DNA of 64,000 nt. Origin: a virus. The DNA lies in IMG/VR virus record IMGVR_UViG_3300031548_000001, positions 31,021 through 95,020 of that record. One strand, given 5' to 3'. The notes below the pieces were generated by a model. That model saw only the letters and a program-made list of their open reading frames with translations, made no database searches and was not told the origin of the DNA. The first letter of the stretch is position 1, and every line of letters starts with the position of its first letter. This document shows positions 3,131 to 62,862 of the stretch, piece by piece. The translations under genes were made by a program, and so were the position numbers.

Positions 3131-4186
3131 TTAGTCTGGGGAAGTGATGGAGACGCTTTCGTAGGGTGAACCGCCTTCAACCACCGTGACGTTGTCACCG
3201 AGTGTGAGGGTCGCCGACGTGCTGGTTTGACTCACAAGCTCGGCAATATTGACGAAGCCGGATACGAGCCTGCTGCCATTGAGAATGGCGAGGAATTCGC
3301 CGACGGTGAGCACCTCAGAGCCAGCCAAGGCCACTGCCATCTGATCCCCCGTTATATCGGACGGCAGCGTTACCATCTTCTCATTGCCAGCCACCCAGAA
3401 CGAAGCCCCGCCGCCATGCTCTTTGAAAAACGCCATCAGCTTTGATGCGCTCCAGCCCTCGGCAGTCTCTGCCCAAACGGTTTGGTTGATGGTGCGTGCA
3501 ACCTCGTTTTCGCGATCGATGACCGAGGCCTCACGACCAAAGCCAATCTCTTCGCGAGCCACGCGGACGGTCAGGCTCGTGCGCGGAGCATCCCAATCCG
3601 TGGGGAAGGGGAAGATCTTCGGCGCAGTTTCGTATCCAGATGGGGTAGGGCCATCGGGTGCGGTGTAGTCCGCCGGCGTGATAGCCCAGTCGGCTTTCGA
3701 GTTCTCAATCAGAAGAAAGTCGAAGTTCACCAGATCCGCGGTCACGTGCTGGGCCTCACGGTTTTCCAAGTAGCCCACAACGAGAGGAACGGTGATTGCA
3801 TCCGCTGCCGGCCACTCCGGCTCTATATCCTCAAAGATCTCGGATTCGGAACCGTCGGCCGCATAGACGTAATTGAGCCCGCCGGTGAACTCAGCGGACG
3901 CACGCTCTGACCACGCCTTTGCTGCTGGCCAGAATGGGACAGCCACGGGTTCATTCTTATGAGAGCGAAGCGCAGAAAGAAGCTGCCTGGCGTCCGCGCC
4001 TTGTGCCTGCACGCGCCCACTGATGCGCAGGCGAAGCGTGGAACCAAACTGTCGGCGTGCCTCACGGTCCGTGAGACCGCTCTCGACGTTGCCGATGAGT
4101 CGGGCACGAGCCCTGAACGGCACGGACCAGTCAATGGTGTCATCCAGCAAGTAGTATGGCAGTGAGTCGTATGTTATCGAACGCAT
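3131..4186 (-). CDS. Distal tail-like protein
   Basis: Directly after the tape measure gene; SGLTDREARR and GGGASFWV motifs resemble Dit-like proteins. Confidence 0.6.
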   Translation of the reverse strand: MRSITYDSLPYYLLDDTIDWSVPFRARARLIGNVESGLTDREARRQFGSTLRLRISGRVQAQGADARQLLSALRSHKNEPVAVPFWPAAKAWSERASAEFTGGLNYVYAADGSESEIFEDIEPEWPAADAITVPLVVGYLENREAQHVTADLVNFDFLLIENSKADWAITPADYTAPDGPTPSGYETAPKIFPFPTDWDAPRTSLTVRVAREEIGFGREASVIDRENEVARTINQTVWAETAEGWSASKLMAFFKEHGGGASFWVAGNEKMVTLPSDITGDQMAVALAGSEVLTVGEFLAILNGSRLVSGFVNIAELVSQTSTSATLTLGDNVTVVEGGSPYESVSITSPD

Positions 4187-20359: not shown

Positions 20360-21157
20360 TTAATTTGGGAAAGTGATGATCGAGGAAGGGTAGGGGCCGG
20401 AACCGTCTTCCACGGTGATGTTGTCGCCGGCGGCAAGGGTCGCGCTGGTGTCGTTTTGGCCAACCAGCACCATGATGTTTCCAGTCGCGGCGACGGCGGT
20501 GGCAGCAGCGGTTTCAGCAGCGGTCTTTGATGCAAGAGATGAAGCGGCACTGCTTGCCGAATCGGTTGCACTGGCATCCGAGGCGGTTGCCGATGTTGCG
20601 GCAGCTGATGCAGACGCCGCAGCAGCACTGGCAGACCCCGCCGCCGCAGTTGCCGACGTGGCCGCGGCAGCGGCTGACGTAGCCGCAGCCGTGGCGCTCG
20701 TTGCTGCAGCCGTAGCAGCCGATTCAGCCGCTGTCTTCGCTGTAATGATAGCCGCCAGCGCACTATCAGGTGAAATAGGCTCGGTGGTGTGAATCGGCAC
20801 CGACGCACCCGATTCACGAGTGATGTCCCGCTTCAGGATCATCTTTCCAAAAGCAAGCGTCTTACGTGCGCCCGTAGCCGAATTCACTGCCTGGATGTCG
20901 CAGACTATCGTTCCGGCCCGGGCCGACAACGTATCGTCGGGCACAACCGCGATGTTCGCGTAATACTTTCCGCCAGACTCCTCGGTCGTGATGCCTGCAC
21001 CGGTGGTCTTCTGGAAGATCGAATCCACATCGGCATCCTCAGCGTCAGCCTTCGCGGTGAACGTCAGGACGTGTCCGGAGGGGTTGAAAGCTACGCCTGC
21101 GATTGCTAGTGCAACCCTGTGCGTGGCGCTATCACCGATGAATTGTTCGAGATGCAT
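20360..21157 (-). CDS. BppU-like adaptor protein with Ala/Ser/Thr repeats
   Basis: GDS...FTAK...QKT..GIT...DT...DIQ...TL..G N-terminal pattern followed by AAxSA repeats. Confidence 0.65.
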   Translation of the reverse strand: MHLEQFIGDSATHRVALAIAGVAFNPSGHVLTFTAKADAEDADVDSIFQKTTGAGITTEESGGKYYANIAVVPDDTLSARAGTIVCDIQAVNSATGARKTLAFGKMILKRDITRESGASVPIHTTEPISPDSALAAIITAKTAAESAATAAATSATAAATSAAAAATSATAAAGSASAAAASASAAATSATASDASATDSASSAASSLASKTAAETAAATAVAATGNIMVLVGQNDTSATLAAGDNITVEDGSGPYPSSIITFPN

Positions 21158-22067: not shown

Positions 22068-22502
22068 TCAGTTGAAAGCCGCATCGTCGCCCGGCGTGTT
22101 GGGCATCGTCCGAGGCATGACCGACAGGTCCACTTTGGCGCCAAAATCCATGTAGAGGTTCCAAGCACGCCGCCCGTGCGGCTTGATGCATGCTCCGTCC
22201 GCATCATGAGGTTCTCTGCCAGGGCGGGCATTCTCCGCATCGACGATCTGCTTCACGAAATCAGGGTTATCCGGGAACTGGCGGCGTGTGATGCCCTCGT
22301 AGTCGCAGGCCCCGATGTGTTTCATGAGCGCGTCCTTCAACTCGATAGGGCCCACCGCTTCGTCAGTCCATGGGATCGCCACAAGGTCGAGGTCAGACGT
22401 AACCGTGCCGTGCATGGCGAGCGCGTAACCGTGTTTGCGGGCGACGACGCAAAGTCCGTGGTAGAGGCAGGCGTAGAAGGGAGCGCGTGTCGGGTCTTTC
22501 AC
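22068..22502 (-). CDS. Putative minimal nucleotidyltransferase-like phage protein
   Basis: GYALAMHGTVTSDLDLVAIPW (G-T..DxD) and KPHGR.AW motifs. Confidence 0.5.
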   Translation of the reverse strand: MKDPTRAPFYACLYHGLCVVARKHGYALAMHGTVTSDLDLVAIPWTDEAVGPIELKDALMKHIGACDYEGITRRQFPDNPDFVKQIVDAENARPGREPHDADGACIKPHGRRAWNLYMDFGAKVDLSVMPRTMPNTPGDDAAFN

Positions 22503-22591
22503 TCAACGTCCTCCGGTGGGTGCATCGGGCCGGTGTCTTTCCAAACGATCACAAGCACTGCAATTATGGCGATGATAGCGACAGTCTTCAT
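22499..22591 (-). CDS. 30-aa single-TM peptide
   Basis: MKTVAIIAIIAVLVIVWK...; preceded by leader AGATACCCGAAACGAA. Confidence 0.55.
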   Translation of the reverse strand: MKTVAIIAIIAVLVIVWKDTGPMHPPEDVE

Positions 22592-22658
22592 TTCGTTTCG
22601 GGTATCTGCCCCCACGAATGACGCAGCGTCGATGTCGTCAAACTCTACGCATGAAAAA

Positions 22659-22868
22659 GGTGAGAGCGGGAGGATTTGAACCTCCGAAGGCTGTAGTCCG
22701 ATTCCCATTCTGGAATCATTCTCCTTTGCGTGAGCGGCGGGACGCTTTTACCACGCAAATTAGCGGAGAATTTTGGCCAGCCCTATGACCCGCATCCTGC
22801 TATTATCTGGTCACTGCATTCGACCTATACGTTTCGTTGCCTACCGCGTATGCCTGTGCCACGCTCTC
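22659..22868 (-). ncRNA. Giant tRNA-like RNA (~210 nt)
   Basis: Acceptor stem GAGAGCG/CGCUCUC + A-C-C; T arm GGAGG-UUCAAAU-CCUCC; D stem GCA/UGC; anticodon stem GUGACC/GGUCAU; variable stem GGGCUG/CAGCCU enclosing nested helices; TTGACC -35 upstream; U-run downstream. Confidence 0.75.
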
Positions 22869-22914
22869 AGGAATTGGGTGGAGCAAATTGACGGATTGGT
22901 CAATTACACACCAA

Positions 22915-23040
22915 GAAAAAGGCCTCCGCAGAACGTAGGCCCAGCTCATCCCGCCATGGGTGGGTGAAAAACAAAAACCCGAGATTCATCATCAGCAGTG
23001 CATGAGCACCACCAACGCTAGGAATGGCCCCGGGACAGTG
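22915..23040 (-). ncRNA. Candidate hairpin sRNA
   Basis: TTGACC at 23073-23068; long GU-rich hairpin 23034-22978; terminator 22941-22915; no ORF. Confidence 0.45.
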
Positions 23041-23085
23041 CTTCAAACATGGTTATGCATGATACTAGGTCAACCATTACATGCG

Positions 23086-24009
23086 TCACTCTTCGCCGAC
23101 GAACTTCTCCGGCACGATACAGCCTGTATGTGATGGGTGGAAACGCAGCTTATCCACGTCATAGACCGGCACATTCTTGATGTTGCACGTCGATTCCCCG
23201 CGATACTGCGGTGACCGGGCCTCGCGTGCCTGGCAGCCAATGACGCTTACCGTCAGCACCGTCGACGACTCGACGAGCGCCTGCTTCGTGCCTTCGTCCA
23301 CCGCGTTTCCGATCTCCGTGCGTGCGATCGTCGGGATGCGTGCGGCTTCAATCTCCGGGATCTTCTCACGAATCGTGCGCACCGCCTCGGCGACGGTCTG
23401 CTTTTCCTCCAGCGCCTGCTCGAGCACGTTGGCAAGCTGGGTGCGCGTCGTGTCGTTGATGCTGGTGACCTCGCGGGCAAGGTTCTGGGACCGGCGAAGG
23501 ATCGAAACGGACCGATCCGGGGCCAACTCCTCACCGATGAAAAGTGATGTGCGCTCATAGGCACGGGCTGCGATGCTTTGGACGATTGGCGTGTAAGCCG
23601 CGATGAGTTCGGCATCGGCCGCTGCACCAAACGCTTCAATGAGCGCCGTGCGCCACACCTGTTCGGTCGCGTTGAGCGTCACCGTTTCCTCGAAATCTTT
23701 CGTCTGCCATGCCGATGCCGACCGCGTGAGCGAGACCGACACACGCACCTGTGCCATGACTGAGTCGCAAAACTTGTTTATGCGGGCGTCGAAGAACTCC
23801 GAAAGGAACGCGGCCAGACGACGCTGGCCATCGACCATCAGCAGGCGGCGCGTGCGCACCATGTCGCGGTGGATCTTGGCGATTTGGGCCGTTGCCGCCT
23901 TGCCGCCGGCGCCGGTCGCGACATGCGACGTCCGGTAGCAGGCGAGCATCTTCGTCGCAGACTTTGGCCGGTAGCAGCCGCAATCAGGCTCATCGAATAC
24001 GAGAGCCAT
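23086..24009 (-). CDS. Minor head / MuF-like head morphogenesis protein
   Basis: INDTTR..L, IARTE...A...G and HP...GC motifs; after the portal gene. Confidence 0.8.
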   Translation of the reverse strand: MALVFDEPDCGCYRPKSATKMLACYRTSHVATGAGGKAATAQIAKIHRDMVRTRRLLMVDGQRRLAAFLSEFFDARINKFCDSVMAQVRVSVSLTRSASAWQTKDFEETVTLNATEQVWRTALIEAFGAAADAELIAAYTPIVQSIAARAYERTSLFIGEELAPDRSVSILRRSQNLAREVTSINDTTRTQLANVLEQALEEKQTVAEAVRTIREKIPEIEAARIPTIARTEIGNAVDEGTKQALVESSTVLTVSVIGCQAREARSPQYRGESTCNIKNVPVYDVDKLRFHPSHTGCIVPEKFVGEE

Positions 24010-24014
24010 GGCGA

Positions 24015-25415
24015 TCAGGCCGCCTCCGGCTCTTCCTTCGGCTTGCGCTCAGGCACGGAGTCATCCGTCGGCACTTCAGCCAGGCCGGCCATCTCCAGCG
24101 GGATGTAATCCTTCTTGATCATGTATTGATCGAGCATCGGGTTGTTCTCGCGGGCGAGGCCACCGAGTTCGCGCAGCTGATTGCCGGTCAGGCCGCCGCG
24201 GTCGAACAGCGGACCGTAGTCCTTCATGACCTGCTCGACATCGATCAGGCCGGTGAGGGGGAAGTCCAGCTTCAGGTTCTCGTGGAACGCAGGGATCAGG
24301 CCATGCGGCGAATTGAGCTTGTCGGTTATGAGATTCACCATCGGCAGGCACTTATGCTTGCGGTGATTCATTTCCTCGACACGGGCCGTTGCAAAGTTCG
24401 CGGATCCGAAGCCGGCGACGGATAGCGGCACGCCGTGGTTCAGGAAAATGTGCTCGATGTTCACCTTCTCCTTTTCCATCTCCTGCATTTCGGCCGCAGT
24501 GATACCCATCTGGAGCAGCGACCACTTACCGTTCATCCATGCGATCTTGCCGGCGTTTTTCACGCCGCCGTAGTTCTGCTGGAACGCAGCCTTTGTCTTC
24601 TGCCAATCCTCATCGGAGCCATCCCACTCCTCGCGAACAAGGATACCCGACGGAACAGCGCCGTTTGCCATGAAGCGCGTCTTGTAGAGCGACCGGTTGA
24701 TGAAGTCCTCGTAGAGGGACTCGCCTTGCTCGATGGAGCCTAGGCCCCAGAGCGGGTTATTGGCGTGCGGGCGCTTGAAGTGGATGATCTCGTCTGGCGT
24801 GAAATTGATTTCGGTTCCGTTCACCGAGTAGGTGTATTTCGCCACCTTGGCATTGCGATCTGGCGTGATCTGCATGCACCGCGGATTCAACCAGTAGATA
24901 TTGTTCGGCTGACCCAAGCCGTTCATCTCGTCCTTAAACCAGAATCCGCTGCCAGTGAACTCCAAGTGGGCCACGAGCAGATACAGCATCTCCGAAATGG
25001 TATCGTGGGGGTTAGGATTGGCCAGCAGGCGCACGAGCTCGGGATCTGCCTTGATCGCCTTCTTCTTCTTTTTGGCCTCGGCGTCACGGTGGGCCAGCTT
25101 CATGTCGGTCGAGATGACGACATTGGCCGTGATGTCCACGGCGCGAGCCGCTGCCCAGACGCGCTTGGTTCCAGCATCCAAGAAAGAGGAGTATCCAGAA
25201 AACTGATGCGTGCGGATGCCAGGCACGACGTCGGCGAAGCCGCCACCGCTGAACAGGTCTATACCGTCTTCATCAGCATTGATGCCGGAGAGGCGCTTCT
25301 GGTCGTTGCTACGCAGGGCCAGAGTGAGGTCGCTTCGGCTCTTGATGACCGCGGCGGCCTTGGCTGTGGGTGTTCCGTAGATGCGTGGCGTCATGTGGTC
25401 CGATAGTTTTACCAA
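24015..25415 (-). CDS. Portal protein (HK97 family)
   Basis: LLANPNP, EIIHFK, WGLG, F.NGA.PSGIL, G..NAGK, I....GVP motifs. Confidence 0.92.
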   Translation of the reverse strand: MVKLSDHMTPRIYGTPTAKAAAVIKSRSDLTLALRSNDQKRLSGINADEDGIDLFSGGGFADVVPGIRTHQFSGYSSFLDAGTKRVWAAARAVDITANVVISTDMKLAHRDAEAKKKKKAIKADPELVRLLANPNPHDTISEMLYLLVAHLEFTGSGFWFKDEMNGLGQPNNIYWLNPRCMQITPDRNAKVAKYTYSVNGTEINFTPDEIIHFKRPHANNPLWGLGSIEQGESLYEDFINRSLYKTRFMANGAVPSGILVREEWDGSDEDWQKTKAAFQQNYGGVKNAGKIAWMNGKWSLLQMGITAAEMQEMEKEKVNIEHIFLNHGVPLSVAGFGSANFATARVEEMNHRKHKCLPMVNLITDKLNSPHGLIPAFHENLKLDFPLTGLIDVEQVMKDYGPLFDRGGLTGNQLRELGGLARENNPMLDQYMIKKDYIPLEMAGLAEVPTDDSVPERKPKEEPEAA

Positions 25416-25467: not shown

Positions 25468-26922
25468 TCATGCGAGGAGCAGGCGATGCTGGCCTGCGAG
25501 CATTTCCCAGAGCACAGTCACAGCGTCGATTTGGTCGTCATGTGCGCCGTCCGGGAACTGCTCAAGCTCATCAAGGAAGTCTTGATTCCACTCACCTTCG
25601 ACCATGAAGAATTTACCGCCGTCGATCTTGGCTATCCACGGCAGCGCACGGACGAGCTTGTCCGATGTCGGCGTGTAGCTGGTGACAATGACGCGGCCCT
25701 TGTAGTGCGTTCGGATGTCCGTTGCTGCCACTTCCCAGGCACCGACGGCCTCGATACCTACTCGTTTACCGATCGCCTCGCGCTCGATGTATTTGAAGAG
25801 CGTCGCCTTTTGCTCAGGCCACAAGCGCCTCGCTCGGTCCATGTGCACGAGGTAAAAGTTTCCATCCTTGTCCATGCACCCGTAGGCACCGGCTGAGTAG
25901 TCGCTCAGGTTCGTCTTGGATACAGCCAAGTCCCAGCCGCGCACCATCTCGCGTCCGGTCGGCACCTTTGAGCGAGGTATTGTGACGATCTTCTTGATGT
26001 CGGTGATCGCGCCGCCCGGCGGGTTGGGCCTCTGCTGGTAGAGCGCGTTCCACTCGTAGCTTCCGATCTGTATTTTTTGAGCACCGAGCCACTTTTCATC
26101 GCGAACCTCGGGCCAGAGGGCTTGGCCTATCTTGCGCCCCATCTCGTCCGTGTCTGGGTTCTCGCACAACGCTTCGAGGCTGAGCACCTCGAAGTTCACG
26201 TCATCGAAACCGGCCTCCTTTAACGCGGCGACACGCTTGGGATCTTGGAGACGGCCAGCCAAGTCATCTTTGTGCCAGCGCGTCTGGATCACGATGACGA
26301 TGCCGTCGGGAGCCAAACGGGTCATGGCGGTGGACGTGAACCACTCCCACACCTTATCGCGTTGCGTCTGTGAATTCGCCTCGGCGCGATCCTTATGCGG
26401 GTCGTCGATCAGCAGGATGTCGGCAGGCATACCTGTGCCGCCACCCACCGACGTTGCGAAGTAGTGCCCACCCAAGCGTGTCTGCCAGTAGTCCTCGCGG
26501 TTGACGCGTGGATTGATGAGCTCAGGGAAGAACTGCTTGTAGCGTTCGCTCTGGACGAGGACGCGAGCCTCACGCGAAAAGCCAGTCGAGAGCGTGGCCG
26601 TGTGCCCGGCCTGCATGATACGCAGTGTCGGGAACACCGTGAGCGCCCACGCCGCGAAAATGATCGATGCCAGGCGCGACTTACCGTGCTGCGGTGGCAC
26701 GTTGATGATGAGCCGGCGAATGCCTCGACTGAGGCACTTCATTAGCTTGCGGGCGAGCAGACGGTGAAACTTCGCCGCTACCCATCCGGGATAAAACGCC
26801 TCGCCAAAGGTAGCCAGCGACTTCAAGCACGCCGCACGCGTGACCTTGGCCAGCCCCTTCAGTGGCAGCGGTTCAAGTTGGGTCCGGCGTGCTGGTAGCT
26901 TCGGCTGGACGGTCTTTGTCAT
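25468..26922 (-). CDS. Terminase large subunit
   Basis: Walker A PPQHGKS, IDDP, TRWH.DD, WDLA, FP.G.HDDQ.DA. Confidence 0.95.
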   Translation of the reverse strand: MTKTVQPKLPARRTQLEPLPLKGLAKVTRAACLKSLATFGEAFYPGWVAAKFHRLLARKLMKCLSRGIRRLIINVPPQHGKSRLASIIFAAWALTVFPTLRIMQAGHTATLSTGFSREARVLVQSERYKQFFPELINPRVNREDYWQTRLGGHYFATSVGGGTGMPADILLIDDPHKDRAEANSQTQRDKVWEWFTSTAMTRLAPDGIVIVIQTRWHKDDLAGRLQDPKRVAALKEAGFDDVNFEVLSLEALCENPDTDEMGRKIGQALWPEVRDEKWLGAQKIQIGSYEWNALYQQRPNPPGGAITDIKKIVTIPRSKVPTGREMVRGWDLAVSKTNLSDYSAGAYGCMDKDGNFYLVHMDRARRLWPEQKATLFKYIEREAIGKRVGIEAVGAWEVAATDIRTHYKGRVIVTSYTPTSDKLVRALPWIAKIDGGKFFMVEGEWNQDFLDELEQFPDGAHDDQIDAVTVLWEMLAGQHRLLLA

Positions 26923-44044: not shown

Positions 44045-46131
44045 AGGGCCTGGGTCCGGACGTGCTCGATTGGCTGGTCTTCAGCTTGCGTGCGCCAGTC
44101 AGGCCACTGGCGGGTCTGGTTGCGGGCGAATTTCTCGCCGAGGGTCTTGGCCACCACCTCGGGTGTGCCGCCGTTACGCATGGCGCCGTCGAAGGCCAGC
44201 AGCACGACGTCGATCCACTCCACGAGGTCGCTTGGGTTTGCCTCGATCTCGGCGAGCTCCTTTCGGATGTGCGCCAACACGCCGGCGGTATTCTGACCCG
44301 GGCCGAACGTTGCCAGAGAGAACTCACGCTGAGCGGTGAGGTGGGCGATCAGATCGAAGAAAGGGGCAATGGCCTTATTCCCTCCGTAGGTTGCGAGATC
44401 ATGCCCCAGTTGGTGGGCCTCGGCATCGCTGAGACGAGAGCCGGGCTTGCCGTTCGCCTGGTCAATAATGTCGAGCGTGTTCAGGTAGGCCATACGCACG
44501 ATGAAGCGCAGGCGGGCGAGCTCCTTGAACTGATCCATGACATGTATCACCGCCGGCTCATTCTTGTCCCGATCGGCGACCAACTTCATGGCGGCCTCGG
44601 CCGGACCGGAGTTGACGCCCTGCTTGGCGGCGTCCCATGCGTTGCAAGCCGCCTGACCTTCGGCGGTGATGTCGGCACACTCGCGCAACGCATCCCCAGC
44701 CGAGAAAAGGGCGGCGATGTGGGCCTTGGCAAGTTGCTCCCGAGAGTAGGTCACGAGGCCCGGGTCTTCCATCGCCAAGGCACCCGCGAGTGCACGCTCG
44801 GCATCTGCCATAGCTTTACTGAAATGAGGCTTTGCCTCCGCCTGCACGCCCGATTGAGCACGGGCGACGTCGTAGCGGGCGATAGCTGCTTGGGTGTCGT
44901 CCTTGCTCAAGATTAAGCCGTGCGCATAGACCGACAATTGATCCCGCATCGCGTCCGCCGCCTCCTGCAACGTGCGCAGGCAGGCCTTGTCCATTTCGCG
45001 CATCTTGCGTTCGGCTTCAATTGCAGCACGGGCAGCGTCGTTGAAGCTCTGGAACTTCACAGACTCGGCCTCGGCCGTCGCGAGCTGGGCGCGGAGGGCG
45101 TCGCGTTCATTTTCGACTCCTTTGTAGAGGCCCGGCCACGAGGCAAGTTCAGCCCGCAGCCGTTTCAGCTCAGCGTCTTTGGCCACCGCACTTGCCCGTT
45201 CTTCCATGATGATGCGGTCACAGGACTTTCGGCCTTCAATCGCTGCCTTAAGTTCATCCTCCAAGTCTGAGATGCGTCTCAACTGAGCGTTGTAGCGTGA
45301 GAGCGAATCAACGTCGATGTGTGCCGCGAACGATTCGAGGTAGGCGAGACGTTCGAGCTTGGCCTTCAAGTCTTCGCCCAAACCGGCGGGCGTCTTGGCG
45401 AGGGCTTCAACCATACGCTCTTGGAGCGTGTTTAAATTCAGGTTGTCCGTTTCACGCTTGGTTGAATCCAGCACGAACTGCAGCGCCTTGTCCTTCTCCG
45501 TAACCAGCGCCAATCCGACATTCCGCTCATCGAGCACGCGCTTCACCGCGTCGGACAGGCTCTCGTGGATCGTCTTGCCGAGCGGCAGAGCAGCAATCTT
45601 CTGGGCTTCCTCGTTGCACCGAACGGCAAACTGGATTTCGCCGCGCTCCACACGGGTAGCGAAGGCCACGGCCCTTCTCTCACTTTCGAGTAGGCGATCA
45701 AACTCCTTGGTGATGCGATCCGGAATCGCGGCGAGGGTCTCTCCGATGCGGCGGTCAACCTCACGGTCGGGCTCGCTTAACTCTTCCCATGGTTTCAACC
45801 ACGAGGGCTTCGGGTTGGGCTGTTCCTTCGCCCATCCAATCCACACAGCACGGACAAGCTTTCCGAGTTCTTCACGGTTGGGTGAACGCGGGGCCACGAA
45901 ATCGAACAACCTAGGCGGAAAGACCGGCGGCATCGCTACATTGCAATGCGTGCGATGCGTGGGCCATTCCTCCACCGGCTTCAGCCGCATATCAGACCCC
46001 TTATCGTTCCAGTTTTTGCGCCAGCGAATGTGGCCACCGGCGTGAAGGGAGTAGGTGATCAGGCCAATCAGGCAGATGATAACAAGAGCCAGCGCCCATG
46101 CGCCGGCGGGTGTGATGAGTGCGATGTTCAT
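44041..46131 (-). CDS. Coiled-coil protein with C-terminal DUF550 (MazG-like dNTP pyrophosphohydrolase) domain
   Basis: FS.ATFGPG...GV..HI.KEL.E...P.DL.EW.D...LA.DG...N..R.WPDW; start after a CCTGAA leader. Confidence 0.75.
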   Translation of the reverse strand: MNIALITPAGAWALALVIICLIGLITYSLHAGGHIRWRKNWNDKGSDMRLKPVEEWPTHRTHCNVAMPPVFPPRLFDFVAPRSPNREELGKLVRAVWIGWAKEQPNPKPSWLKPWEELSEPDREVDRRIGETLAAIPDRITKEFDRLLESERRAVAFATRVERGEIQFAVRCNEEAQKIAALPLGKTIHESLSDAVKRVLDERNVGLALVTEKDKALQFVLDSTKRETDNLNLNTLQERMVEALAKTPAGLGEDLKAKLERLAYLESFAAHIDVDSLSRYNAQLRRISDLEDELKAAIEGRKSCDRIIMEERASAVAKDAELKRLRAELASWPGLYKGVENERDALRAQLATAEAESVKFQSFNDAARAAIEAERKMREMDKACLRTLQEAADAMRDQLSVYAHGLILSKDDTQAAIARYDVARAQSGVQAEAKPHFSKAMADAERALAGALAMEDPGLVTYSREQLAKAHIAALFSAGDALRECADITAEGQAACNAWDAAKQGVNSGPAEAAMKLVADRDKNEPAVIHVMDQFKELARLRFIVRMAYLNTLDIIDQANGKPGSRLSDAEAHQLGHDLATYGGNKAIAPFFDLIAHLTAQREFSLATFGPGQNTAGVLAHIRKELAEIEANPSDLVEWIDVVLLAFDGAMRNGGTPEVVAKTLGEKFARNQTRQWPDWRTQAEDQPIEHVRTQAL

Positions 46132-53890: not shown

Positions 53891-55657
53891 CTAACGGGTA
53901 AGGAACTTCCTCACCAAATTCTGCAGGAGCGCGGACTTTGTCACTTCCTCGCCATCGGTTGTCGAGCTTACGATCTTTGCTTTTTCGGACACGATCGCCC
54001 AGAGGTCGTCGTCGATTGTGCCAGGTGCGAGAAAGTAGTAAGCGTTGACGCAATCCTTCTGGCCGATGCGGTGCAGTCGGTCGATGGCCTGCTGGTGTTT
54101 CGTGTGGGTCCACATGAGTTCGGCGATGCCGATGTGCGAGCAGACACCTTGTAGACCATTGATGCCGAAACCGGCCGCGATGATCGAGCCTATGAACACG
54201 CGGCAGCGCTCATCCTTCGCGAACTTCTGGACCTCAGCGCCAACGTCTTTGCAGCCACCGAGCACGACGGCAGGACTCCATTTCTGCAGGCCCTTCACCA
54301 GAGCGGCCTGCACCTCCGGGTGATAGGCGTAGATGACAAACTTCTCGCCGGATTCGAGGAACGTGTCGATCCACTCGATGATCCACTCGACCTTGCCGCG
54401 ACCGGCGGCGGCCCGGAGCATTCCAATCTTGATCATCGCCATAGCCGAGGCCTGCCCATCTGTGAGCAGCGTGCCTTGATTCTGCATTACGACTGCTTTC
54501 GCGTCCTGCTCGATGCGGTCATACTCACCGCGATTGGTGAGTTCGCATTCGTAGATGGATTCGATCTTGTCCGGAAGCTCCTTGAGCACGTCCATCTTCT
54601 TACGACGGATGTAGCAAAGCTGGGTCAGTCGGCCATGCAGCTCCTTCGTGTTCGTGGCGCCGGTCATCTTCATGCCGAACTGGCCGCGCACGTATCCGCA
54701 GTAACGCACCATGAATTTATATTCGTTCTCGAAGTGGTGCATCAGGCCGAAGAAATTCAATGGTGCCAGCCACTCGGACGGATCATTCTCCACCGGGGTG
54801 CCGGACATGATGAAGCGCACCTTTGGATCACACAGTTGAGCGATCGCCGTTGCGGCCATCGACCGACGTGACTCTCTGCGCTTGATGAAGTGGCCTTCGT
54901 CGCAGGCGATACCGACCACCTTATTGAAGGTGGGGAAAAAGTATTTCTTCGTGTCCGCCGCAGCCTCCTTGCGCTCCTTGGCCTTCGGTGAGGCGAGCAT
55001 GAAGTTCACGTAGTTGTGCACCTCGGAGTAGCCCATGATCGTGATCTCGGCCAAGTCATTGGCTCGGACACTGGCCTTCCGGTGCGGAAGCCATTTGCGG
55101 CACTCAACCAGCCAGTTCTGCTTGAGCTTCACCGGGCACAGGATCAGCGCCGGGAATGCCTGGGACATCTCAAGCGCGGCCAGCGTTTGGAGTGACTTAC
55201 CAAGGCCCATGTCGTCGCCATTGTAGGCCCGCAGCTTATCGACCATGAAGCGGACGCCGACCTTCTGGTAATTCTTGAGCGCCTGCACCAGATGAGGGGC
55301 CGAGGGGATCTCGATTTCAACCTGCTCCTCGCTGGACGCCTGATCCTTCGCCGCGGCAGCCGCGATGCGCTTCATGTCCTCGCTCAACCGGGTGCGAGCG
55401 TCCTTGGTCGGGGTAATGCCCCAGCCGACGAGCTTGGTCAGGCACTTCGCCGCATCGTCGCCAGGCTGGATGTTCCACGAGTATCGGCGGGCGTCGTAAG
55501 ACTTCTGGCTGAGCTTCTTCACGAGCTCCACGCACATCAGGTATTCCTGACGTTCCTTCTGCATGTAACCGGCGTCGAAAGTCAGCGTGAACTCGCCGCC
55601 GACGAAGAAGAGAACACCCTTGCGGATGTTTTGTGAGACTTCGGCAGTCAGGCTCAT
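53891..55657 (-). CDS. SNF2/HARP-like helicase
   Basis: YQ..GV, DDMGLGKS, DEGH.IK, SGTP..N, Q..DR.HRIGQ. Confidence 0.9.
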   Translation of the reverse strand: MSLTAEVSQNIRKGVLFFVGGEFTLTFDAGYMQKERQEYLMCVELVKKLSQKSYDARRYSWNIQPGDDAAKCLTKLVGWGITPTKDARTRLSEDMKRIAAAAAKDQASSEEQVEIEIPSAPHLVQALKNYQKVGVRFMVDKLRAYNGDDMGLGKSLQTLAALEMSQAFPALILCPVKLKQNWLVECRKWLPHRKASVRANDLAEITIMGYSEVHNYVNFMLASPKAKERKEAAADTKKYFFPTFNKVVGIACDEGHFIKRRESRRSMAATAIAQLCDPKVRFIMSGTPVENDPSEWLAPLNFFGLMHHFENEYKFMVRYCGYVRGQFGMKMTGATNTKELHGRLTQLCYIRRKKMDVLKELPDKIESIYECELTNRGEYDRIEQDAKAVVMQNQGTLLTDGQASAMAMIKIGMLRAAAGRGKVEWIIEWIDTFLESGEKFVIYAYHPEVQAALVKGLQKWSPAVVLGGCKDVGAEVQKFAKDERCRVFIGSIIAAGFGINGLQGVCSHIGIAELMWTHTKHQQAIDRLHRIGQKDCVNAYYFLAPGTIDDDLWAIVSEKAKIVSSTTDGEEVTKSALLQNLVRKFLTR

Positions 55658-58860: not shown

Positions 58861-60789
58861 TCAGAAAGGCGCGTCTTCATCGATCGGTTCTTCGGTAGCG
58901 ACGAGTTCTGGCGCCTCCGGGATTGGCTCTCCGGCAATAAACGAGTGTCCTCTCAGGCGATGATGACCGAAATACTGCTTCGATTCCTTGATATACCAGA
59001 GGTCGATTGTCGGTTCATCACCATCGTCGTTCTTCTGCTTTCCGATAATCAGCTGGGTGTCGGGTTTCGCCCGGCGCTTGGCAGCGATCTTGGACTCCTC
59101 GTCCTTCATTTTGATCATCTGCTCGATCTCCTTTTCCTTTTTCTTGTTTCGGTAAACGAGCATGACGTTGTGCGCCTGGTCCGTGATTTCTCCAGACCCC
59201 TTTACGTCCATTTTATTCACGACCTCGTCTTCGCTCTTCAGCTTGCGCGGGTGTGCGATCAGAAAAACGTGAACGTCGCAGTCGCGGACAAAATCCGAGA
59301 TCGCGTTGAGCACGAGGCCCTGCGCATCAAAGTCGTCACCAGCGATGCCGAGCTTCATGAAGGAATCGATCACGAAGAATCGCACGCCATGCCGCCGGTA
59401 GGCATAGCGGAATGTCGCGAGCACGTCCCGCCAATCGACCTTGCCGACCTTGTCGTAGAACCAAAATCCGCCGGCGAACCAGTCCTTCGCCGATTCAACG
59501 ACGTGCCTCTCTGGCGTATTGGTGCCCAGTGCCTGGCGCACCATGAATTGGAGTGTCTGCGTTGTCGGCACCTCGAATGAGCCGATGCAGCTCGGGTATC
59601 CAAGCTTCCGCAGATGAATCAAGATGAACTCGATCAGCGTCGTCTTGCCGCTGGAGTTTATTCCCGTCACGAGCGTCCACTCGTTCCAACGGAGGTGGAA
59701 CGGGTAATTTCCGAAGGGTAGGGGTATGCCTTTTTTAGCATTGGCATCCTGCGTGAACATGCGATCGACGACTGCTTGCCAGAAGTCGCCAGCGTTACGA
59801 AGCGCCTCCGGGTCCATGGTCTTGGCCTCGTTGAAAGCCTTCACCAACTCCGCACCGCGGCCTGCCTGCTGAAGGGCGTTCGCGTCCTTCTCCGGCAGGT
59901 TGACGACGAAGCACACCTCGCGGCCCAGACGTTTGATGATAGACGCACACGCCTTCCGGCCCGCTTCGTCCATATCGAAGCTCAGATAGACGCGCTCGAA
60001 CCGCTGCAGGAACTCCCAGTCCAAATCAATCCACTCGTCATTCGGGTCGCGTCCATCCTTGCCTTCCCACTTGGCGCCGAACGGCACCGATGTGCAGCAC
60101 AGGCCGGGGATGCGCATCGACTTCCAGCTCATGGCGTCGATCTCGCCCTCCGAGATGAGCAGGTAGCGATCTGTAGGCTGCACCGTGTGTTTGCCGAACA
60201 AAACCTTGGGCGTGTCCTTCGATGTCCACGGAATCTTCTTCCCGTTCTCGTCGCGCTCTAGCTTCAGATATTTGATCATCTGAGCCGCGTGCTCGGGACC
60301 GTGCTCGGAGAGGAACGGGAACACGATCGCTTCGACGTCGGCCAACATCGAGATGCGGTAGAGTTCGAGGATTTCCCTCGGGATGCAGCGCTCGGCCGTC
60401 AGGTAGAACTCCACCTTGTTTGCGAGCCAGGTGATCCCCTTTTTAGAAGGCTTCGAGTAGGTCTTCTCGCGGGCGGCGCGGATCGAAGTCGAGTTGGTCA
60501 CGCCTTGGCCTTCGAGCCACTGACGCGCCTCAGCCAAGGCCATCTGGAAGGGCAGGCTCTTAGCCTGCACCCAGAGTTCGAGGAGGTTGGATCCGCCGAT
60601 GTCGCCAGAGAAGTCGCGCCAGATACCGGCCTTGTCGCCGCGGAGGACGACCTTCAGTGATTGACCAGCGCCTCCGCCGATGTCGCCGCACACCCATTCG
60701 CCGCCGGATATTTTTCCGCCAGGCAGCAGCAATGAGCACACATTTTCGGCGCGATCGGCCAAGGCCTTCTTCAGTTGTTGGAGTTCCAT
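58861..60789 (-). CDS. Primase-helicase (T7 gp4/Twinkle-like)
   Basis: TOPRIM EGEIDA, FDMDEAG, KDAN; Walker A GINSSGKT, IDS, AHPRK; start at ATG 60789 after the leader. Confidence 0.92.
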   Translation of the reverse strand: MELQQLKKALADRAENVCSLLLPGGKISGGEWVCGDIGGGAGQSLKVVLRGDKAGIWRDFSGDIGGSNLLELWVQAKSLPFQMALAEARQWLEGQGVTNSTSIRAAREKTYSKPSKKGITWLANKVEFYLTAERCIPREILELYRISMLADVEAIVFPFLSEHGPEHAAQMIKYLKLERDENGKKIPWTSKDTPKVLFGKHTVQPTDRYLLISEGEIDAMSWKSMRIPGLCCTSVPFGAKWEGKDGRDPNDEWIDLDWEFLQRFERVYLSFDMDEAGRKACASIIKRLGREVCFVVNLPEKDANALQQAGRGAELVKAFNEAKTMDPEALRNAGDFWQAVVDRMFTQDANAKKGIPLPFGNYPFHLRWNEWTLVTGINSSGKTTLIEFILIHLRKLGYPSCIGSFEVPTTQTLQFMVRQALGTNTPERHVVESAKDWFAGGFWFYDKVGKVDWRDVLATFRYAYRRHGVRFFVIDSFMKLGIAGDDFDAQGLVLNAISDFVRDCDVHVFLIAHPRKLKSEDEVVNKMDVKGSGEITDQAHNVMLVYRNKKKEKEIEQMIKMKDEESKIAAKRRAKPDTQLIIGKQKNDDGDEPTIDLWYIKESKQYFGHHRLRGHSFIAGEPIPEAPELVATEEPIDEDAPF

Positions 60790-60824
60790 TTCAGTTCGGG
60801 TTCGTTTCGGGTTTGGGTGTCTGA

Positions 60825-61010
60825 TCAGCAGAGCGAGCGTATGCGGCCTATCTCTATCGCCGCGGCAAGAGGTAGGCCGGGCTTTCCTTTCGAGTTGAAG
60901 GTGGTCGCGGCGCCTATGCCGACGAGACCGCAACGCCGGGCGTGCCGATAGGAGAAGCGTGAGAGGAACACGTGCAGATGCACGCGGATGATCATGAGTT
61001 GTTTTTTCAT
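60825..61010 (-). CDS. Hypothetical protein
   Basis: Variant leader GCCAGAGACCTGAACCC...CAGAAATGAA. Confidence 0.45.
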   Translation of the reverse strand: MKKQLMIIRVHLHVFLSRFSYRHARRCGLVGIGAATTFNSKGKPGLPLAAAIEIGRIRSLC

Positions 61011-61064
61011 TTCTGGTTGGTTTTTGGGTTCAGGTCTCTGGCAAATAGAGGTGGGCTGCTTCTG

Positions 61065-61445
61065 CTACCAATCTATGTCGATGGTGTATTCTCCCGCATC
61101 GAGCAGGCCCTTCGCGTGCAGGTCGTTCGCCACCATTTGCACGTCGGGGTAGAAGTTACGGTCCCACCACAGCGACAGACAGTAGTCTTCCTGCCGTCCG
61201 GGCAGCTTTTGCTTTGGGTCTCTCGCGAGCCATGCCGCAAAGCTCACGCCGCGTTCGGAATGGTTCACGACTTCGGGCACGGACCCGCGCTCGTAGTCAT
61301 CAGCCGGAGCAGGCACACGCAGGCGGAAGACTCCGCGAGGCTTGCACCCGTCCTGCTGCTGAAATGAGTATTCTCGCCCATAGGTTTTCTTCTCGAGCGC
61401 ATCCCATTCGGATACGTCGATCACTTGTTCTGTTCGTATTTTCAT
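61065..61445 (-). CDS. Hypothetical protein
   Basis: 126-aa ORF with phage-like codon usage. Confidence 0.6.
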   Translation of the reverse strand: MKIRTEQVIDVSEWDALEKKTYGREYSFQQQDGCKPRGVFRLRVPAPADDYERGSVPEVVNHSERGVSFAAWLARDPKQKLPGRQEDYCLSLWWDRNFYPDVQMVANDLHAKGLLDAGEYTIDIDW

Positions 61446-61464
61446 TGGTGATTAGGAGGTTGGA

Positions 61465-62862
61465 TCAACCTTTGTAGTCGATGACCACGGGCATGCCGTT
61501 TGGGTGGGTGTCGCAGACCTTGTAGCGCGGCTCGCCCTCGTAGATCTCGGCGAGGTTCACCTCGAACGGCGTCGAGCCCCCCGGGGCCATTACCTTCGTC
61601 ATCTTCGGCGCTGTAGCCTTGGCTTGAACTTCCAGCACGAACGCCATCGCATCGGTGGAGTAGCCGCCATCCATGATCACGTCAGCGCGGCACTCGTTCT
61701 TCGCATTGCGGCCAAAAATCCAGCCCCACGAGTAGGGCTTGCCGTCCTGACCCTTGTGACCATTGCGGGCCATCAAGTAGTCGGAGGCGCGGACCTTTTG
61801 GGCCAGCAGCTCGAAGCAGCCGACCGTCTTGTTGTGCTTCCGCCAAAAGTTCTTCATCGCCACGTCGCGCCTGTCCCCCTTCGTGGGCATCTTCACCTCC
61901 GGCACGATCCGCGCCAGTGCGCCCATCACCTGCCGCCATGGAAAGTCTTTCCCCTTCGGGTCATCTTCTGACACGAGCGCGAGGTCGGCGGGGGGAACCC
62001 TGCTGGCGGTCTCTGACGCACGCGCCTGTCGTTCCTCTTCCATCGCCGCAAGGTCGCCAGCATCAATGCCAGTCTCCTCACCATCACAAACGCCGACGGC
62101 TTCAGCCGGCGGGTTTAATCCTTTAGGATTAAACGTAGTATCTGCCTCTGCTTCTGCCTCTGCTTGTGTTGACGTAGTTGACAGATTCGTAGTTGTAGCC
62201 GGAAGCAACGCATTGGACTTCGTAAGTTGATCAATCAATGCGAGGACTTCGGGTGTCTTCCTGAACCAGTCTCCCTGTATGCGATGAACCGAAATGCATT
62301 CCTTTACAGCGACTACCTTACTTTCATTCCCTTCTATTATGGCCAGAATCTCAGCGTTCGCGTGTGCTTTCTTCGTTTCACTTAGGCGAGCCCAAGGATT
62401 AACACTGAAGCCAATTTTTACGCATCCGTTCGCAGCTACGAAAAACAAGTAGCCGTCTCGTAGTTTTGTCGTAGTTGGCTTCGTAGCTACGCTCGTAGCG
62501 ACCTTGGCGCGGTGCTCAGCCTGCTTCACGCGGAGGTATTCACGCCGAGCCTCGGTGTCCTGCTTGTCTCGATATTTCGCGTAATTGGTCAGCGCCCAGC
62601 CCCCGTCGATTTTGTATATGCGTCGGCCATCGTTCTCCGGTGACCTGGAGAACTGATCGGGCGATTCGAGGGTGGCGATCGCATCAATCGTTTCCTGCAT
62701 GCTCAGGCGGGCACGGTCGGCCAGGCCCGGGATTGATGCCTCGATGACGCCGTCTTTGTCCGCCATCGCCAGCAGGGTGATGAACAGGATGCGCGTGGGG
62801 TTCGCCTCGCGCCAGATCGTCGAGTCGAGGATGCTGGAATGCAGCTTGGTGAATCCGCTCAC
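61465..62862 (-). CDS. Replication initiator-like protein with an inserted T5orf172/GIY-YIG domain
   Basis: FTKL.SSIL.STIW...L.AMAD..G, PD..SRS...GRRI..GGW...NY..YR; internal YL.F....VKIG.S.NP..R...GDWF; GTGA overlap with the upstream gene. Confidence 0.7.
   Translation of the reverse strand: MSGFTKLHSSILDSTIWREANPTRILFITLLAMADKDGVIEASIPGLADRARLSMQETIDAIATLESPDQFSRSPENDGRRIYKIDGGWALTNYAKYRDKQDTEARREYLRVKQAEHRAKVATSVATKPTTTKLRDGYLFFVAANGCVKIGFSVNPWARLSETKKAHANAEILAIIEGNESKVVAVKECISVHRIQGDWFRKTPEVLALIDQLTKSNALLPATTTNLSTTSTQAEAEAEADTTFNPKGLNPPAEAVGVCDGEETGIDAGDLAAMEEERQARASETASRVPPADLALVSEDDPKGKDFPWRQVMGALARIVPEVKMPTKGDRRDVAMKNFWRKHNKTVGCFELLAQKVRASDYLMARNGHKGQDGKPYSWGWIFGRNAKNECRADVIMDGGYSTDAMAFVLEVQAKATAPKMTKVMAPGGSTPFEVNLAEIYEGEPRYKVCDTHPNGMPVVIDYKG

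Follow-up and report, generated by a model that had tools for sequence, protein, structure and literature searches.

The sequence analysed here (the window) is a 64,000-nt stretch that corresponds to bases 31021-95020 of a 95-kb IMG/VR virus record derived from an uncultured prophage. In the head-gene region of this phage, the genes for a large terminase, a portal and a MuF-like head protein are separated by an intergenic gap from genes for a 30-amino acid (aa) hydrophobic peptide and a 144-aa protein, and the gap holds, on the minus strand, an RNA element shaped like a transfer RNA (tRNA) (Table 1). The peptide gene starts 68 nt past the RNA, and its stop codon overlaps the start of the 144-aa gene. 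The setting of the RNA is noncoding: positions 22680-23085 rank among the two longest stretches of the 95-kb genome in which neither strand contains an open reading frame (ORF) of at least 80 aa. Relatives of the flanking proteins were found in Opitutus and in Opitutaceae metagenome-assembled genomes, and hence the host of the phage is probably a verrucomicrobium of the Opitutaceae. A canonical tRNA-Ala gene, located at the very start of the record, probably represents the prophage integration site or the host boundary.

Table 1. Features of the RNA locus and related elements of the phage (window positions unless marked as genome positions)
Feature	Position	Strand	Remarks
Large terminase gene	25468-26922		head-gene region
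Portal gene	24015-25415		head-gene region
MuF-like head protein gene	23086-24009		head-gene region
Intergenic gap holding the RNA	~490 nt		between MuF-like gene and 30-aa peptide gene
Long hairpin CCCGGG...CUCGGG, then UUUUUGUUUUU	22966-23034	-	first of two hairpins, read as tandem terminators, after MuF-like gene
Terminator-like hairpin GGGCCU...AGGCC, then UUUUU	22916-22942	-	second of the two hairpins
TTGACC box	22898-22903	-	possible -35; 29 nt upstream of G1
Whole tRNA-shaped RNA, G1 to C75	22659-22868	-	210 nt; helices checked
Acceptor stem, 5' strand GAGAGCG	22862-22868	-	7 Watson-Crick pairs with 22668-22662
D arm, class II type	22816-22859	-	3-pair stem GCA/UGC, 22859-22857 with 22818-22816
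Hairpin inserted in D loop, AUACG/15-nt loop/CGUAU	22827-22851	-	22851-22847 with 22831-22827; 16/17 region
Anticodon-like arm	22785-22814	-	6-pair stem GUGACC/GGUCAU, 22814-22809 with 22790-22785; 18-nt loop
Expanded variable arm ("cargo")	22688-22783	-	~96-97 nt; closing stem GGGCUG/CAGCCU, 22783-22778 with 22693-22688
T arm GGAGG-UUCAAAU-CCUCC	22669-22685	-	blastn matches to annotated phage tRNA 3' ends
Acceptor stem, 3' strand CGCUCUC, A73, C74, C75	22659-22668	-	A73 at 22661, CC at 22660-22659
30-aa hydrophobic peptide gene	22499-22591	-	leader CCCGAAACGAA-ATG, usual for this phage
144-aa protein gene	22068-22502	-	fibre-like genes next
tRNA-Ala(GGC), canonical	genome 14-89, outside window	+	62.5 bits; G3:U70; encoded CCA
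Second tRNA-like gene, 97 nt	genome 15531-15627, outside window (15394 bases before its start)	-	33.5 bits; passes Rfam tRNA threshold

The RNA has the architecture of a class II tRNA that has been enlarged at three sites. A first-pass annotation of this DNA, made from the sequence alone, had described a tRNA-shaped RNA in which the D, anticodon and variable arms are all expanded, and all 10 helices of its cloverleaf were found at the minus-strand positions it had given, together with the three additions. The acceptor stem is preceded by U at position -1 (22869) and is followed directly by U8 and G9 on its 5' side, and a UUUUU run at 22658-22654 comes directly after C75, the terminal A of the CCA end not being encoded. 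The invariant tRNA core is kept in full except for U33: U8 after the acceptor strand, A14, G15, G18, G19 and A21 in the D arm, C48 before the T arm, and G53, U54, U55, C56, A58 and C61 in the T arm, where the consensus base A57 is also present. Approximately 27 extra nucleotides lie between G15 and G18, and the D loop contains the inserted hairpin plus AGGUCGAA. A26 separates the D stem from the anticodon-like stem, whose loop begins C-A-G-A-U-A-A and carries A at position 33; six pairs, 18 loop nucleotides and A33 thus replace the usual five pairs, seven nucleotides and U33, in agreement with the first-pass claim that no canonical anticodon loop is present. Because the anticodon stem closes such a loop, the RNA is predicted to be incapable of decoding. 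In the variable arm, the six pairs of the closing stem open into a junction from which two hairpins extend, one of 18 pairs (6 + 8 + 4) with two 5-nt bulges (GCUAA and GUAAA) and one of 6 pairs (GAUUCC/GGAAUC); UC then links the variable arm to the T arm. The additions to the D loop (at its 16/17 region), to the anticodon loop and to the variable arm all sit where the tRNA fold tolerates extra RNA.

Several signals surround the RNA. Both hairpins with U-runs past the stop codon of the MuF-like gene are read as tandem terminators, and the TTGACC box was found at exactly the distance before G1 that had been claimed for it. A consensus scan found no sigma-70 promoter, and no sigma-70 -10 element follows TTGACC; the other intergenic TTGAC(C/G) boxes of this phage likewise lack TATAAT-like boxes. 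Three TTGAC(C/G) boxes cluster in the gap that holds the RNA (at 23073, 22903 and 22641), the third of which, TTGACG, is located between the RNA and the 30-aa peptide gene. Since no good terminator was found after the RNA and before the peptide gene, transcription may continue into the next operon.

Standard tRNA searches recognize only part of this RNA. The Rfam tRNA model (RF00005) aligns to the T arm and acceptor only, with 15.7 bits (E = 3.5) versus a threshold of 29, and ARAGORN at default settings makes no call on the intact RNA. By blastn against 50,697 phage records, the 800-nt region and the RNA itself matched through the T arm only, the matches being to tRNAs. Evidence for tRNA descent was obtained from the other half of the molecule. 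A 33-mer query, in which the 5' part of the RNA was joined without the D-loop hairpin, was searched against the phage records and matched annotated tRNA-Tyr genes at 23 of 26 bases; the D-arm core TGGCA ... GGTCGAATGCA is identical in the RNA and in the tRNA-Tyr of Shigella phage Ag3, and the D arm of an Opitutaceae tRNA-Ser(GGA) is nearly identical to that of the RNA. By our estimate, a run of 11 nt identical to the D loop and stem of a canonical class II tRNA would occur by chance within a 190-nt interior with p ~5e-5, and a 7-nt acceptor complement within ~400 nt with p ~0.02. We also built a covariance model from this RNA alone (R1). The RNA itself scores 274.5 bits with R1, and end-to-end alignments of real tRNAs to the model give 21-35 bits. 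At the level of sequence similarity, these data show that the RNA was derived from a tRNA, beyond what chance would be expected to produce.

This descent was further examined by a collapse test, in which the D-loop hairpin and the ~96-97-nt variable domain were deleted in silico, with the variable arm cut back to its closing stem. ARAGORN at default settings called the collapsed RNA a tRNA, reading it as tRNA-Ile(GAU) with 13 extra loop nucleotides. In its drawing, the acceptor is clean, the D and anticodon stems have three and five pairs, respectively, the variable arm is long and a T arm is present. Of control sequences in which the acceptor and T arm were kept and the interior was shuffled, 14 of 300 were called tRNA. 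Since the deletions were of our own choosing, the test supports tRNA descent and is not proof of it. The readable collapsed form would also fit a precursor of a working tRNA, which would become able to decode once one or more intervening pieces had been cut out, and ARAGORN at an 80% threshold indeed reads the intact RNA as tRNA-Arg(ACG) with a 135-nt intron. However, in this Arg reading the D stem has two pairs and position 33 is A, and the same run made 281 other calls on the 95 kb, so that the low-threshold reading yields no convincing normal tRNA, whose restoration by splicing the first-pass annotation had named as evidence against its own interpretation. A precursor would also require three separate excisions. 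Group I introns have a conserved core and usually exceed 200 nt; the largest single insert here is ~96-135 nt, a length that would accommodate neither a group I nor a group II intron. Rfam, searched up to E = 10, gave no match to an intron or ribozyme, which agrees with the first-pass remark that the RNA seems too short for a group I intron, and we regard a spliced precursor as very improbable.

Folding energies give different pictures for different parts of the RNA. The fold constrained to the cloverleaf has -72.8 kcal/mol, versus -74.5 kcal/mol for the unconstrained minimum, in which the acceptor, T arm and complete variable domain are already formed. The variable-arm domain (-36.4 kcal/mol) has z = -3.6 by mononucleotide shuffles, and the whole RNA has z = -2.9 by mononucleotide shuffles and z = -1.7 by a dinucleotide shuffle. 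With z ~0, the D and anticodon-like part alone is no more stable than mononucleotide-shuffled sequence, and the support for that part is therefore sequence homology and not energy.

Known classes of RNA with tRNA-like ends were considered as well. In transfer-messenger RNA (tmRNA), as in this RNA, the two ends form an acceptor stem beside a T arm around a long structured interior, and YrlA, the Y RNA of bacteria and mycobacteriophages, is likewise a non-decoding mimic of the tRNA elbow. A divergent tmRNA is contradicted by the third acceptor pair, which is G3:C70 and not G3:U70, by the presence of a real D stem, and by the absence of any ARAGORN or Rfam tmRNA call; reading of the sequence gave only short, un-tag-like frames, none of which ends in a hydrophobic tail. 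The first-pass annotation had already pointed to the missing G3:U70 pair and tag ORF. In YrlA, whose gene lies by rsr, the 5' and 3' ends form the Ro-binding stem, whereas here they pair as an acceptor stem, and no match to a TROVE/Ro (rsr) gene was found in the 95-kb phage record. No Rfam family, YrlA included, reaches its gathering score on this RNA, a check that had been proposed earlier. Assignment to a divergent tmRNA or bacterial Y RNA thus appears scarcely credible. In a search for antisense targets, no complement of the two long loops was found elsewhere in the phage genome.

The search for relatives covered ~130 related viral loci or records, 151 Opitutaceae genomes and pattern scans of IMG/VR, with the MuF-like-anchored loci being drawn from IMG/VR, metagenome and genome collections. 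When R1 was run on 98 sources, a further 27 viral records, six additional loci and the 151 Opitutaceae genomes, no homologue was detected; the matches were ordinary tRNAs and one 146-nt false match. Scans of IMG/VR with an exact 27-mer, a 16-mer and two architecture patterns produced zero or random matches only. Among the sources searched, the RNA is thus an orphan. The closest MuF-like relative examined as DNA (G001, IMGVR_UViG_3300039210_000244) is 49-50% identical and lacks the gap that holds the RNA: its MuF-like gene ends at 54642 and its homologue of the 144-aa gene starts at 54636. In the closest contig anchored on the 144-aa protein and examined as DNA, the protein is 73% identical and a coding gene adjoins it with no gap; the protein database has closer relatives of both proteins (72-78% identical for the MuF-like protein and 80-91% for the 144-aa protein). 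Because the flanking genes abut in the closest relatives examined as DNA, the RNA arrived as an insertion, and together with the two upstream hairpins and the 30-aa peptide gene it forms a lineage-specific insertion.

Two observations were made on related records in the course of this search. The large terminase of G001 (~60253-62232) matches in two pieces ~570 bases apart, which suggests an intron, an intein or a frameshift. A second record (IMGVR_UViG_3300044611_002115) contains a 203-nt candidate at 45569-45774 on the plus strand, which scores 18.7 bits with the Rfam tRNA model and 15.1 bits with R1, and which has a 7-pair acceptor, a GCUC/GAGU D stem, a GGAGG-UUCGACU-CCUCC T arm and a long interior. 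This candidate was rejected as an analogue on account of its weak scores. It is spanned by a 302-aa ORF and may be a chance occurrence; by our estimate, chance alone would produce approximately two such long-range T-arm/acceptor pairs in the amount of DNA scanned.

Absence from every relative examined is also what would be expected of a decaying or scrambled, nonfunctional tRNA gene, that is, a pseudogene, a recombination scar or an old att remnant with palindromic insertions. Such an origin would also account for the destroyed anticodon loop and for the failure of standard tRNA finders to make a call; temperate phages often carry tRNA fragments, and the present record begins with tRNA-Ala. 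Decay, however, should also strike the acceptor, the T arm and the tertiary bases, all of which are intact with zero mismatch, and the three additions lie at structurally permissive sites, each with clean helices. The RNA is distant from the tRNA-Ala end of the record, and its 3' end matched no tRNA in 401 Verrucomicrobiota genomes, so that a remnant of a tRNA of the sampled hosts was rejected. We consider a nonfunctional remnant unlikely, although it deserves to be taken seriously.

The phage carries a second tRNA-like gene, in which the acceptor, D and T arms are intact, U73 and CCA are encoded, and the anticodon loop is replaced by a 28-nt loop with a small hairpin of its own. This 97-nt gene lies 9 nt past the stop codon of an ORF resembling a cytosine methyltransferase and 7 nt before the leader of the next gene. 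The phage thus has at least two tRNA bodies with rebuilt anticodon loops, which weighs against a pure accident and lends some support to a processing role. In its simplest form, such a role would make the 210-nt RNA a cis-acting processing signal, or tRNA punctuation: as the leader of the downstream operon, which comprises the genes for the 30-aa peptide, the 144-aa protein and the fibre proteins, it would be cut by RNase P and 3' enzymes to set the 5' end or stability of the mRNA, and the excised RNA would have no role. Plant mitochondrial t-elements, which are tRNA-shaped and are not aminoacylated for decoding, act in this way by recruiting RNase P or RNase Z to define RNA ends (PMC1920247). 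The second gene, wedged between its neighbors without a promoter of its own, favors a processing signal, as do the two terminator-like hairpins upstream of the RNA and the lack of a convincing terminator after it, an arrangement in which the downstream genes would need the promoter region at the RNA. A processing signal, however, requires only the minihelix of acceptor and T arm and leaves the three large additions, among them the 96-nt domain with its low z score, unexplained; and the third box, TTGACG, could drive the operon alone. A purely cis-acting signal is therefore rather unlikely in our judgment.

We favor, with modest confidence, the interpretation that the element is a tRNA-derived, stable, non-decoding structured RNA that is matured by tRNA-processing enzymes and whose added domains or chassis carry its function. 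The chassis would be that of a class II tRNA, comprising the acceptor, the T arm, a D arm of the Ser/Tyr type and the bases that build the elbow. Transcription would begin at a start of its own just upstream, past the two terminators that would close the terminase-portal-MuF transcript, and might read through into the downstream operon; the location after two terminator-like hairpins and the presence of TTGACC where a start at G1 would place it are counted in favor of this interpretation. Because the acceptor/T-arm half is intact and is accompanied by U at -1 and A73-C-C, putative processing by RNase P and the CCA-adding enzyme, which the first-pass annotation had also envisaged, appears reasonable. 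By analogy with known tRNA processing, from which we infer the transcription, processing and stability of the RNA as well as any target, the tRNA half would be recognized by RNase P at the 5' end and then by 3' trimming enzymes and the CCA-adding enzyme, to yield a stable RNA with defined ends. Placed beside G18/G19, the inserted hairpin could distort the elbow through which RNase P recognizes its substrate. Decoding would be prevented by the large A33 loop and the 96-nt variable domain, and the effector would be either the cargo domain or the chassis itself, competing for a tRNA-binding host or defense protein. The candidate functions named in the first-pass annotation were a decoy for anticodon nucleases, tRNA-targeting toxins or RelA, and a scaffold RNA.

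The 144-aa protein encoded two genes downstream of the RNA was examined as a possible partner. Its predicted fold has a pLDDT of 90, and Foldseek matches to the model were weak but uniform, all being nucleotidyltransferases of the polymerase-beta type (E 0.01-0.05, TM 0.3-0.4). In this widespread family, which comprises 243 homologues, the motif H-G ... D-L-D is invariant and another Asp, the third, is kept at position 125; no Pfam family was matched. A homologue of the 144-aa gene adjoins a coding gene in both of the relatives whose upstream side was read, and no tRNA-like element was found within 2.5 kb at six loci with such homologues. Obligate pairing of the RNA with the 144-aa gene was thus rejected, and a functional pairing of the two is not supported, although one in this particular phage is conceivable. 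A more elaborate version of the favored interpretation would see the class II chassis as a natural delivery scaffold: matured, CCA-tailed and maybe charged, the RNA would use its cargo or acceptor end to engage a host tRNA-directed enzyme or defense protein, perhaps together with the conserved minimal nucleotidyltransferase. Seryl- and leucyl-tRNA synthetases do not read the anticodon, and charging of the RNA is conceivable for that reason. Taken as a whole, we consider the delivery-scaffold version doubtful; if true, phages would possess a novel kind of RNA effector whose body is that of a tRNA.

Comparison with known systems helps to place this RNA. The tRNA-Ser and tRNA-Tyr of bacteria and phages, which belong to class II, resemble it in several respects: the acceptor has seven pairs, U8 is present, and the D stem has three pairs and an AG...GGUCGAA loop; the variable arm is a stem-loop, separated from the T arm by one or two bases; the T loop matches the consensus, and the discriminator is a purine. 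The RNA differs from them in its length (210 versus 85-90 nt), its ~27 additional D-loop nucleotides, its 18-nt loop with A33 instead of a 7-nt loop, its branched 96-nt variable arm instead of one of ~15 nt, and scores below tRNA thresholds. Examples of phage RNAs that have the shape of a tRNA but no anticodon date back to the "species 1 and 2" RNAs of T4; to our knowledge, the function of such RNAs, including T4 rnaC and rnaD, has not been established. The closest natural precedents are rnaC (139 nt) and rnaD (119 nt), which are likewise phage-encoded and longer than a tRNA. In the T4 record, where both belong to the tRNA cluster, their annotation reads no more than "small, stable RNA"; at its end, rnaC has the T arm CCGGG-UUCGAAU-CCCGG. 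Of the traits of this loose class of phage RNAs, the present RNA shows phage encoding, a length beyond that of a tRNA and a tRNA-like 3' half, and accumulation as a stable processed RNA is predicted for it. The present RNA has no sequence similarity to either, is much larger, has a full class II chassis and stands alone in a head-gene region, whereas the T4 RNAs are members of a tRNA cluster.

Processing elements that resemble tRNAs form the other group of precedents. MascRNA and the tRNA-like RNAs of herpesviruses are not aminoacylated for decoding and recruit RNase P or RNase Z to form RNA ends; these RNAs and the t-elements mentioned above differ from the present RNA in being tRNA-sized or smaller, without cargo, and eukaryotic or organellar. 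Engineered "tRNA scaffolds", which serve to express recombinant RNA and in which a tRNA chassis carries a foreign structured RNA, are processed and stabilized as tRNAs in bacteria. They are man-made and hold their cargo in the anticodon arm, whereas the present RNA is natural and has its main cargo in the variable arm. The RNA is distinct from the natural precedents in its size, its full class II chassis and its additions at three sites. If expressed, it would be among the largest natural RNAs that keep a complete tRNA chassis, and would indicate that extra structure can be accommodated simultaneously at each of the three permissive sites of the tRNA fold. Recent studies show that phage tRNAs counter tRNA-cutting defenses (PMC10264068, PMC11464382 and PMC11555353), and hence a non-decoding chassis with cargo is a candidate for a new RNA tool for counter-defense or regulation. 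A single orphan sequence from an uncultured prophage limits the conclusions that can be drawn in this respect.

Two further features of the phage were noted. A 265-aa protein resembling a fibre adaptor ends in 39 residues that are 56% identical to the end of a protein encoded ~17 kb away (window positions 20360-20476 versus ~3134-3250). Genes throughout the phage are preceded by a common leader, (C)AGAnA-CCCGAA-(CCCGAAA)-CGAA-ATGA, for example at window positions 22602, 12798, 10231, 27869 and 37490. Its core, CCCGAAA, has 49 occurrences on the gene strand and five on the opposite one, nearly always directly preceding a start codon, and the leader may be an unusual signal for translation initiation or processing.
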